Shown one piece after another: positions 45,171 to 48,100 of a stretch of DNA of 48,913 nucleotides. A program made the translations under genes and the position numbers. The DNA is from an uncultured bacterium (GTDB lineage Bacteria > Patescibacteriota > Minisyncoccia > Phycocordibacterales > GWA1-40-21): the NCBI GenBank assembly GCA_903823865.1, contig CAIJUJ010000029.1, positions 1 to 48,913 on the forward strand. Direction: 5' to 3'. Each line of letters starts with the position of its first letter. The stretch's first letter is position 1. Below the pieces are notes generated by a model. It saw only the letters and a program-made list of their open reading frames with translations. It made no database searches and was not told the origin of the DNA.

Positions 45171-48100
45171 TTACTCCAAAAGCAACCTGGCTTTTAGTCC
45201 ATCAAGTTCAATAAGTTCTCCTTCCTCCATTTTTTCAAAAGTTATTTCTTTCAAACCAGTAGCTTTTGAAATTTCTTTATCAAATTTTTCAAAGATATTT
45301 TGGCCTGCTTTGTCTGTGTCAATGACAAGACCAACCAAATCTCCTGGATTTAATTTCTTAGCTTTTCTCATTTCTTGAATTGCACGAACAATATCGCGCA
45401 TAATTCCCTCTTCTTTTAGCTCTGGGGTAATATTTGAATCGAGCAAAACATCAGTTTCAATATTTTTATCAAAAATTATTTCTTTTACATTAACTTCTGC
45501 TTTAATCAAGTCAAAATATTCTGCGTTTCCTTTCAATTTTTCACTTTTTACTTTCAAACTTGCAAGTGGTTGTCTTACTTTTAGCCCAGCTTTCGCACGA
45601 GCTTCAAGTCCAATTGAAACAACGGCTCTCGTTTCTTTCATTTTTTCTAAAATATCAGCTTCTGCTTTTCCAAGTTCACCAACGAGATTGTCAGGCCAAT
45701 TTTCCAAATGCACACTTTCCTTTTCCATCCCTCCGGTGATTTTTAAATACAAATCTTCAGCAAGAAAAGGCATTGATGGCGCTAAAAGTTTTGAAAATTC
45801 AAAAATTACGGTTTTTGTTGTAAACATTGCAGAATTTCTATCTTCTACATCTTCAGATTTAAATCTGTCTCGTGACCTTCTCAAAAACCAAGTTGAAAGG
45901 TCATCAACAAAATCAGCGATTGGTCTTGTCGCTCTATCTAGCTCGTGGTTGTCTGTAGATTTTGTGATTTGTGTCGCGGTTTCTTTAAGTCGTGCAAGTA
46001 TCCATTTATCTAAAATGCCGTGCCCTGTAGTGAGCTTTGCTCTACTACCGGGGTTTTTTGACTGGTCTTTTTGTACATCTTTCAAATCAAAACCTCCGTA
46101 CATTTCAAAAAATGAATAAACATTTTGTAATCTCATAATAATTTTTTTCAAAACTTCATCAACAAACTTGCTTGAAAAAGCTACATCTTCTGCTTTTACC
46201 GATGGAGAAGAAAGAATAGAATATCTAAATGCATCAGCACTATAAGTCGATATGACATCCATAATCTCTGGATAATTTTTCAAACTTTTTGACATTTTTT
46301 TACCATCTTCAGCAAGCATCATCCCGTTTACAACAACACTTTTGTATGATGGCTTACCAAAAAGTGCGACAGAAAGTACAAGCATTGAATAAAACCATCC
46401 TCTTGTTTGATCCACCCCTTCTGCGATAAAATCTGCTGGAAAACCAATTCCTTTTTCTGGATTAAATGTATCTAAATTTTCAAATGGATAGTGAGACTGC
46501 GCATAAGGCATTGAGCCAGATTCAAACCAACAATCAAAAACTTCTGGAATTCTTTTCATTTCTCCTCCACAAAAACATTTCAAAGTTATTTCATCAATAA
46601 ATGGCCTGTGCATATCAAGCTCGTAATTTCTATTGTGTGGAATAGGCGCAAAATCAAGTTTTTTTATTTCAGAATTTTTTATGAATGGTTTTCCCGCTTC
46701 TCTTATCGCCATTGCCTGCTTTGGTGTCAAACCGTTTGCCCCAGAAAACATCAGCCAAATTGGAGTATTGTGAGAAATAATCAAAATATTTTTGTCTTCG
46801 TTTTTTGCATTTGCTTCATACAAAAATTCTGTCATTCTGTTTTTAACAGTCGTATAATTTTCTCCACCTTCAGGAGTTTTTGTAAATTTAGCTTCTCGAG
46901 ATTCAAAAAACGCTTGATATTCTACATCCGGTTTGCCATCAAGCACACCGACAAATATTTCGTGCAATCTTTTATCATAAACTATTTTATCTTTTGGAAA
47001 ACCAATTTTTTCTGCAATAATTTCGGCGGTCTCCTTTGTCCTCAAAAATGGCGAGCAATAAATAACATCTATTTTATTTTTCAAAAGATTTTCTCCGGCA
47101 ACTTCAGCTTGTTCTTTACCATTTTTGGTCAAATGATGTTTTGTTTTTGGATTTGAGCTGAGAATTCCGAGAATATTACTTTCCGCTTCACCGTGTCTAA
47201 CAATGAAAAAATTATTTCCTTTGCTTGTTCTCTTTTTTATATCATCGATTGAACCAATGAATTCTTTTTCTGGGCAACAAGCACATTTCCAGACTGGAAG
47301 TGGTGCTCCCCAAAATCTACTTCGAGAAATTGCCCAGTCACGAGCGCCTTCAAGCCATTTTCCAAATCTTCCATCACCCACTTCATATGGAACCCAGTCA
47401 ATTTTTTTATTTGCTTCAACTAATTTGTCTTTAATTTTTGTAACCTCAACAAACCATGAGCTTGTCGCGTAATTTAACAGTGGTGTATTGCATCTATAAC
47501 AGTGTGGATATGGGTGTATAAATTTTTCTTTTGCATAAAGCGTTCCTTCTTTTGCTAAATGTTTAATAATTTGGATATCGGCTCGTTGTGGATCTTCTAT
47601 CGGTTTTACTTTTTCTCCAGCAAAACCTTTTACTTCAGCTTTAAATAGGCCATCCATTCCAACATGTTGAATAAATGGTAATTTTTTCTCTTTTCCAAGA
47701 TTCATATCGTCTTCTCCAAATGCAGGTGCGATGTGAACAATTCCTGTTCCATCTTCTGTTGTAACAAAACTTGCATCATAAACCTTGAAACCATTTTCCC
47801 TATTTTTTAATTCACTATTATCATAAAAGTTAAAAAGAGGTTTGTATGAGAGACCAACCAAAGCTTTTCCTGCAGTTTTTTCAACAATTTTATATGGTTC
47901 TTTAATTGTTAAAAGTCGTGATTCTGCCAAAATAAATTTCTCTTCTCCAATCAAAATTTTTACATAATCAATGTCTGGATTTACCGCCAAAGCCACGTTG
48001 CCAGGAAGAGTCCACGGGGTGGTCGTCCAAGCCAAAAAGAACGTTTTTGGCCCTGCCCCGTTAGAAGTAGCGCTTGCCGCGTCAGTTCTGATGGGGTCGT

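Follow-up and report, generated by a model that had tools for sequence, protein, structure and literature searches.

The isoleucyl-tRNA synthetase (IleRS) encoded on contig CAIJUJ010000029.1 (assembly GCA_903823865.1), from a freshwater bacterium of the Paceibacteria within the Candidate Phyla Radiation (CPR), contains a nested domain that is apparently a complete and active histidine phosphatase. The whole 48,913-nucleotide stretch was analysed and is referred to below as the window. We put at roughly 0.9 the probability that the 1209-residue product of its ileS gene is bifunctional, a complete type-2 IleRS harbouring a complete phosphatase, with two or three intact catalytic sites (synthetic, editing and phosphatase) in one chain, and that this phosphatase is a long-standing genomic partner of argS and ileS. 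An earlier note, made from the letters of the window alone, had described an apparently intact phosphatase domain within IleRS at 46650-47220. This interval encodes residues 528-717 and so corresponds to the phosphatase domain, and a Pfam search recovered His_Phos_1 at residues 532-697 (E=1.4e-33), between two stretches of tRNA-synt_1.

The synthetase part of the protein appears complete. A Pfam scan of the 1209 residues returned tRNA-synt_1 in two parts, His_Phos_1, Anticodon_1 and DUF5915, and the NCBIfam model for ileS (TIGR00392) matched with 844.8 bits (cut-off 621.4), likewise in two stretches that are split at the insert. The HYGH and KMSKS signatures, the editing motifs and the anticodon-binding domain are all intact as judged by their residues (Table 1), and the CP1 editing motifs are almost invariant across two homologue alignments. 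Among proteins of solved structure the closest sequences were Priestia megaterium IleRS2 (8C8U, 714 bits) and Thermus thermophilus IleRS (1ILE, 696 bits), with eukaryotic cytoplasmic IleRS also among the best relatives, whereas Staphylococcus aureus IleRS1 (1FFY) reached only 292 bits, far below the type-2 structures. Because the IleRS2, Thermus and eukaryotic structures outscore IleRS1 and the C-terminus is of the DUF5915 type, the sequence places the host enzyme among the type-2 (eukaryote/archaea-like) IleRS.

The gene does not result from misassembly: its protein cluster was found on 22 contigs, and at least nine metagenome runs of lake or freshwater origin, in four studies, contain its DNA. 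More generally, a chimeric assembly, a pseudogene and an element removed after transcription in the manner of an intein or intron are effectively excluded as explanations of the insert. The reading frame is unbroken here and in ~100 other loci, a whole-protein Pfam scan detected only synthetase domains and His_Phos_1, with no Hint, intein or homing-endonuclease domain at the insert, and the insert evolves under constraint. Between the window and its closest relative (L003; synonymous divergence dS ~0.65), the ratio of nonsynonymous to synonymous substitution (dN/dS) was 0.054 for the insert and 0.085 for the rest of the gene, which indicates that purifying selection constrains the insert no less than the synthetase body.

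The boundaries of the insert were drawn by alignment to insert-free IleRS. In such enzymes 59-65 residues separate the DWxISRxRxWG and DCWFESG motifs, compared with ~257 in the window protein and ~250-260 in its insert-bearing relatives, in agreement with the earlier statement that canonical IleRS lacks this domain. When the insert was removed in silico, its flanks aligned unbroken to T. thermophilus IleRS 435-556 (E=3e-41), and the ~200 additional residues take the place of a six-residue loop (T. thermophilus 483-488) in the CP3 subdomain, which in Thermus IleRS carries a zinc motif (PMC7191050). The earlier note had counted about 190 residues between the two halves of this zinc knuckle; the cysteine pairs lie 232 residues apart, ~200 of which belong to the insert. 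Conservation was assessed in 116 IleRS that carry the insert, drawn from GTDB genomes that represent species and from a protein library in which sequences were clustered at 50% identity, with inserts 28-91% (median 39%) identical to that of the window. Both pairs of zinc-ligand cysteines are present in 65 of these proteins, all four cysteines are lost in 47 and the remaining 4 are intermediate, while the CP3 cysteines are retained in all examined insert-free IleRS. In yeast IleRS, the CP2-CP3 linker (ARDWNVSRNRYWG) is part of the pocket for the CCA end of the tRNA (PMC7955072). The equivalent segment of the window protein (residues 486-498) ends 30 residues ahead of the insert.

Assignment of the insert to His_Phos_1 (PF00300) is far beyond chance, with 116.6 bits against a gathering cut-off of 21.7 and profile positions 2-167 of 194 covered. 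All motifs quoted in the earlier note were found where it had placed them (RHGEAESN at 535-542, SPFLRTKETA at 583-592, RLHE at 611-614, PEGGE at 643-647 and ISH at 675-677), and its identification of the catalytic positions was confirmed with one correction, namely that the second catalytic arginine is R587. The note had taken a lack of conservation among homologues as grounds to abandon the proposal; R535, H536, R587 and H677 are present in every one of the 116 proteins, and the predicted proton donor E614 is replaced only by aspartate, in two of them. E647 (115/116) and R655 (114/116) are conserved to a similar degree, and the catalytic residues are also conserved in a set of 70 genomes. Because the catalytic set is invariant while the adjacent zinc cysteines have gone from 47 of the 116 proteins, the pattern indicates that selection maintains the chemistry of the phosphatase rather than the local fold alone. 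The same observations bear on whether the domain could be a non-catalytic module that has retained the fold and serves to sense a metabolite or to bridge ArgRS and IleRS as a scaffold. Accessory domains of synthetases often serve in binding or assembly, which makes such a role conceivable; however, the full catalytic set including the proton donor has been kept across 116 diverged sequences in which zinc cysteines were free to disappear from 47, and conservation of the glutamate argues for catalysis over mere sensing. We therefore consider a non-catalytic role very unlikely.

Structure prediction gave a concordant picture. AlphaFold 2 (AF2) modelled the isolated domain with a mean local confidence (pLDDT) of 92.8 and a predicted TM-score (pTM) of 0.89, and within the full-length model the domain retained a pLDDT of 85-96. 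Foldseek matched the predicted domain with probability 1.00 to PspA, GpgP, PhoE, CobC and TIGAR (TM 0.72-0.78), with PspA 4IJ6 at TM 0.78, and ranked phosphatases (TM 0.75-0.78) ahead of mutases (TM 0.64-0.72). This ranking is relevant to the idea that the insert is the glycolytic phosphoglycerate mutase (PGM) missing from some Parcubacteria, masked by the IleRS annotation. PGM is reported to be patchy in Parcubacteria and absent from several shallow clades, possibly because its forms there are too divergent for the hidden Markov model threshold of that study (Jaffe et al. 2020; PMC7304191). The best NCBIfam match of the insert is indeed the archaeal short, cofactor-dependent PGM (dPGM) model NF038349 (E=2e-29). 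However, its 102.7 bits fall far under the cut-off of 225, the bacterial dPGM models score 19-35 bits (25.2 against 81.7 for TIGR01258, pgm_1), and a hidden mutase would leave the linkage to argS and ileS described below unexplained; taken with the Foldseek order, this makes the idea unlikely. The models for PspA (73.7 bits against 350), CobC (72.2 against 162.9) and SixA (44.4 against 74.5) also fell short. Because every NCBIfam equivalog cut-off was missed, the insert belongs to the His_Phos_1 superfamily but to none of its characterised subfamilies.

The nearest unfused relatives of the insert are free-standing proteins of ~190 residues that are 35-44% identical to it, and five of the six that were looked up adjoin aminoacyl-tRNA synthetase genes. 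Four have argS directly upstream, with the phosphatase start codon 1-2 nt past the argS stop codon or overlapping it; three of these four also have an insert-free ileS downstream, and the fifth lies ~1.1 kb upstream of an insert-free ileS. No synthetase neighbours were seen at the loci of P0021, a near relative, and P0046, a more distant one. A metagenome scan with an alignment of the argS/ileS-linked free-standing proteins as query returned 80 loci, comprising 54 with a free-standing gene, 25 with the inserted form and one with ArgRS and phosphatase in a single open reading frame (ORF). Where the contig left room to see (47 loci with the free-standing form), ArgRS ended no more than 300 nt upstream in 41 and an insert-free IleRS of 931-1025 residues began no more than 300 nt downstream in 39; the free-standing gene, lying between argS and ileS, often overlaps its neighbours at the stop and start codons. 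Most insert-bearing loci show the order argS-ileS-recO with the phosphatase inside ileS; in the window the order is ileS-(hisD)-recO, and 113 nt of sequence are present upstream of ileS. Downstream of the free-standing phosphatase, the insert-free IleRS belong to at least two very different subtypes, named here WFESGSM and WLDAGIV after their motifs, and the order argS-phosphatase-ileS is retained in both. The subtype sequences are DVGNPWLDAGIV (L084, L098, L102, L104 and others) and DVLDCWFESGSM (L093, L094, L143 and others).

A loop that follows RHGEAxSN (SS-x-P ... H-L-T) is specific to this clade, being common only to the inserts and to the argS/ileS-linked free-standing proteins, and sequence comparison identifies the insert as the in-gene form of the ~190-residue free-standing phosphatase of related Patescibacteria. 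Rough neighbour-joining trees were built for the phosphatase domain and for the IleRS core with the insert masked. Because the inserted and free-standing states interleave in both, the family has probably switched between them more than once (at least two to three times), in trees that carry no branch support and do not set the polarity of the switches. The earlier suggestion of a phosphatase tethered to a synthetase thus gains independent support from the argS-phosphatase-ileS order and from the insertion point near the CCA-pocket linker. The roles that the note had put forward for it (repair of tRNA ends, removal of a phospho-modification or sensing of a metabolite) are hypothetical.

In rare relatives, fusion is not confined to the CP3 loop. 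The IleRS P0193, encoded on contigs of two independent samples (L091 1711-5304 and L092 1570-5174), has three His_Phos domains, each inserted at a different place and none where the window protein has its own: the first follows the second zinc knuckle, the next follows SMPYAxxHYPF and the last lies in a loop of the anticodon-binding domain. In P0196, two such domains stand in tandem. As far as these sequences indicate, His_Phos domains entered IleRS independently at different loops. At L103 (2881-5067), the C-terminus of ArgRS and the phosphatase share a single frame of 729 codons, with the junction between ...GISSPQQM and KRIELNNKYYIMRHGQA, on a single contig in which a sequencing error at the stop codon is possible. 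Because repeated fusion together with a conserved neighbourhood usually indicates it, these findings suggest a functional association of the phosphatase with the synthetases.

Alternatively, the domain could be an independent small-molecule phosphatase, unrelated to aminoacylation, that reached a permissive loop by local rearrangement and whose fusion only ensures co-expression. Its nearest structural and sequence relatives are all small-molecule phosphatases, the inserted domain is not basic, and with the source gene immediately upstream an accidental rearrangement would be mechanistically easy. IleRS of this clade also accept unrelated inserts, which suggests that their loops are permissive: P0183 combines the phosphatase with a P-loop kinase (AAA_18/AAA_33) that follows DCWFESGSMPYA, P0317 and P0197 have a GNAT acetyltransferase in the CP1 region in addition to His_Phos (residues 285-415 in P0317), and P0100 has an IS200-like Y1 transposase domain (residues 340-461) alongside the phosphatase. 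Such a history would not readily account for the survival of the argS-phosphatase-ileS adjacency across the highly divergent WFESGSM and WLDAGIV subtypes, nor for the repeated entry of His_Phos at different IleRS loops and the one ArgRS fusion. We regard it as possible but doubtful.

The nested arrangement is widespread. The best 80 loci from GTDB contigs, searched with one genome per species, all covered the entire 270-residue junction query, and their titles named Paceibacterota, Taylorbacteria, Lloydbacteria, Nomurabacteria and Parcubacteria. An exhaustive HMMER scan of 1.84 billion representatives returned 198 clusters (50% identity) at E<=1e-30; nearly all of the clusters listed span both insert junctions, and PF00300 is present in all of the 120 best full-length matches. 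The nested phosphatase is carried by hundreds of species-level lineages of Paceibacteria.

What the phosphatase acts on can be proposed from its position. ArgRS and IleRS are class I synthetases and need a free A76 ribose on their tRNAs. According to the model that we favour, the domain would be held by two short linkers on CP3, the base of which lines the tRNA CCA pocket, and would act in cis on the acceptor end of the tRNA. Hydrolysis would proceed through a phospho-histidine intermediate on H536, removing a 2'- or 3'-phosphate, or a 3'-pyrophosphate, left by toxSAS-type toxins or RNA cleavage, and the restored free A76 ribose could then be charged by IleRS; in the unfused state, a separate enzyme would serve ArgRS and IleRS alike. 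The proposal is made because the tether adjoins the CCA pocket, the class I partners depend on the free ribose, and bacterial tRNA 3' ends bearing pyrophosphate do occur and block charging (doi 10.1101/2021.04.30.441581; PMC11559606). A blocking phosphate or pyrophosphate on the acceptor end is accordingly named as the substrate only tentatively. That the argS/ileS-linked phosphatase in either state provides quality control of the acceptor end, stripping an A76 2'/3'-phosphate or a toxin-derived pyrophosphate at the CCA pocket, is a broader claim about which we are doubtful.

Several points weigh against acceptor-end healing. We know of no His_Phos_1 member that acts on RNA ends, and the substrates of the closest structural relatives are all small molecules (phosphoserine, glucosyl-3-phosphoglycerate, fructose-2,6-bisphosphate and alpha-ribazole phosphate). 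The inserted domains have a median net charge of -2 and a pI of 6.2; among operon-linked free-standing proteins five of eight are strongly basic (+13 to +23), and close relatives vary widely. The full-length AF2 model reaches a pTM of 0.61, with low quality in the second half of the Rossmann fold (residues 757-847), which makes it unusable for the geometry between H536 and the CCA end. Operons of reduced genomes can combine unrelated housekeeping genes, and an end-repair enzyme bound to one synthetase would serve tRNA-Ile only.

A different reaction in cis is also conceivable, in which the domain would take an inhibitory phosphate off IleRS (or ArgRS) itself, for example from a phosphoserine of the KMSKS loop. 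HipA/HipT-type kinase toxins phosphorylate the synthetases GltX and TrpS, and some His_Phos_1 members (SixA, Sts-1 and PGAM5) are protein phosphatases. SixA is among the NCBIfam matches of the insert (E=1.5e-11), the insertion sites lie on either side of the Rossmann-fold half that contains KMSKS, and one relative carries the P-loop kinase insert; the SixA match nevertheless stays at 44 bits, under the cut-off of 74.5, and we consider self-dephosphorylation improbable.

Comparison with known systems shows where the architecture departs from them. In predicted fold (TM 0.72-0.78), in size (~200 residues) and in its RHG/R/E/H set, the insert resembles the small His_Phos_1 phosphatases of broad specificity Hydrogenobacter thermophilus PspA (4IJ5/4IJ6), Bacillus stearothermophilus PhoE (1H2E), CobC (6E4B/6NRU), Mycobacterium tuberculosis GpgP Rv2419c (4PZ9) and TIGAR (3DCY); it differs from them in being only 20-25% identical and in being nested in a synthetase, whereas they are autonomous enzymes. 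The window IleRS is collinear over its full length with canonical type-2 IleRS (1ILE, 8C8U and the eukaryotic cytoplasmic enzymes), sharing HIGH, KMSKS, the editing domain, the zinc knuckle and DUF5915, but has ~200 extra residues at the CP3 loop. That IleRS can harbour an unrelated enzyme domain has a curated precedent in NCBIfam NF040702 ('ileS_w_GNAT'). The window protein lies outside that family (300.2 bits against a cut-off of 1999, and no GNAT by Pfam), which embeds another domain family; in P0317 the GNAT site is the CP1 region and not CP3. His_Phos_1 is joined to a nucleic-acid enzyme in the M. tuberculosis Rv2228c-type RNase H/CobC-like acid phosphatase (NF005567), the fourth-best NCBIfam match of the insert (E=6e-20, 71.8 bits against a cut-off of 326), but that fusion is end to end and has another partner enzyme, whereas the phosphatase of the window is nested. 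Healing of tRNA or RNA 3' ends is carried out by the phosphatase of T4 and bacterial Pnkp and by the HD-domain phosphatase of the bacterial CCA-adding enzyme. Small alarmone hydrolases undo tRNA pyrophosphorylation by toxSAS (10.1101/2021.04.30.441581). The likeness of the end-healing enzymes to the insert lies in the proposed function only, as their folds (HAD, HD) are unrelated to it.

A literature search found no paper linking IleRS with a histidine phosphatase, and searches on CPR and aminoacyl-tRNA synthetase insertions, on Parcubacteria PGM and on Patescibacteria returned nothing relevant to the architecture. To our knowledge, a phosphatase active site has not been reported in any aminoacyl-tRNA synthetase. 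Synthetases in which an accessory enzyme domain is embedded are a kind already known; we found no description of the phosphatase version, which is visible in database domain tables but unnamed. Public names for P0008, P0213, P0223, P0317 and others are 'class I tRNA ligase family protein', 'histidine phosphatase family protein, partial' and 'GNAT family N-acetyltransferase', and with such names surveys may miscount both IleRS and phosphatase.

Table 1. Features of the ileS gene, its nested phosphatase domain and the recO anchor (positions of the window; Tt, T. thermophilus IleRS; Sc, yeast; counts refer to the 116 insert-bearing IleRS)
Feature	Residues	Position	Strand	Basis or remark
ileS, type-2 isoleucyl-tRNA synthetase with nested phosphatase domain	1209 aa	45171..48800	-	ORF
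HYGH (class I HIGH signature)	75-78	48567..48578	-	
CP1 editing domain	approx. 200-430	47511..48203	-	TTTPWT (259-264), AFGEDD (360-365) intact
CP2-CP3 linker ARDWAISRSRFWG	486-498	47307..47345	-	equivalent to ScIleRS 453-465
N-terminal half of CP3 zinc knuckle, WKCACC	504-509	47274..47291	-	C506, C509 = Tt C461, C464
Inserted histidine-phosphatase domain	529-728	46617..47216	-	Pfam, alignment to insert-free IleRS, AF2, Foldseek
Pfam His_Phos_1 match	532-697	46710..47207	-	E=1.4e-33
RHG motif: R535, nucleophile H536, G537	535-537	47190..47198	-	R, H kept 116/116
Second phosphate-binding Arg	R587	47040..47042	-	kept 116/116
Predicted proton donor	E614	46959..46961	-	E 114/116, D 2/116
Second catalytic His	H677	46770..46772	-	kept 116/116
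C-terminal half of CP3 zinc knuckle, KCFCGG	741-746	46563..46580	-	C742, C744 = Tt C502, C504
DCWFESG motif, second Rossmann-fold half resumes here		46515..46535	-	
KMSKS loop	835-839	46284..46298	-	
Anticodon-binding domain, Anticodon_1	931-1079	45564..46010	-	Pfam
DUF5915 C-terminal domain (type-2, archaeal, eukaryote-like IleRS)	1082-1208	45177..45557	-	Pfam
recO, downstream synteny anchor of the argS-(phosphatase)-ileS-recO block		43248..43895	-	Pfam RecO_N

Further observations were made at related loci. The third His_Phos domain of P0193 has the same in-frame TAA in both contigs, with a clean frame beyond it; a split IleRS, readthrough or recoding, and a pseudogene are all possible. At L001 and L002 (ERZ25039480/ERZ25039472), ileS, and on L002 also argS, is broken into several short called genes, which accounts for a protein search that had yielded only fragments bearing both Pfam domains. 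Split genes were considered for the fragment matches P0002, P0004 and P0006 and set aside, since these come from long-read contigs on which ArgRS is fragmented too and look like frameshift or indel artefacts. At the Moraniibacteriota locus L083 (CP064989), five tRNA genes (Thr, Tyr, Thr, Trp and Glu) with an L33 gene among them (4010-4702) lie upstream of the free-standing phosphatase, and a gene for a Zeta-toxin/AAA_33-like kinase (9843-10376) overlaps the ileS stop codon. A kinase-phosphatase pairing was rejected, as no homologue of this kinase was found at other loci, and the gene was treated as sporadic. Control of ileS by a T-box was likewise dropped: a T-box-like string upstream of ileS at L083 was unconfirmed, and an Rfam search of 12 loci and the window at the gathering threshold detected none.

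In the remainder of the window, a full-length gene for histidinol dehydrogenase (hisD; 43948-45129, +; Pfam E=9e-158) stands alone between ileS and recO in the opposite orientation; an isolated hisD is odd for a CPR genome. None of the other loci searched has hisD here, not even L003, the 92%-identical relative, and a role of the insert as histidinol-phosphate phosphatase, to which the adjacent hisD had pointed, was rejected on this ground. A 23S rRNA match at 6710-10190 (-) spans 3,481 nt compared with 2,925 nt in the Rfam model; the extra ~550 nt, in a region with no ORF of at least 100 codons, would be insertions or introns, as are common in CPR. A 5S rRNA gene follows (6337-6446, -). No 16S rRNA and no tRNA gene was found in the 48.9-kb window, so the rRNA operon is unlinked. 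Two large ORFs, 26122-29886 (-; 1,254 aa) and 41154-43076 (-; 640 aa), had no Pfam match, the first of them lying in a stretch of raised G+C content (0.38-0.40 compared with ~0.32 elsewhere), and an ORF of 925 aa at 11351-14128 (-) gave weak matches to HerA/TrwB-type ATPases.

Taken together, the repeated fusion and the conserved gene neighbourhood are a strong indication of a phosphate-removal step associated with tRNA charging, one that current models of translation lack. If the tRNA 3' end were acted on, this step would be a new layer of quality control or of defence against toxins: IleRS would have a third catalytic site, for end-healing, in addition to those for synthesis and editing, and widespread CPR bacteria would possess a built-in immunity to tRNA-end-modifying toxins. 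If the enzyme instead used a metabolite, 3-phosphoglycerate for example, reconstructions of CPR metabolism would be missing an enzyme hidden in a housekeeping gene.

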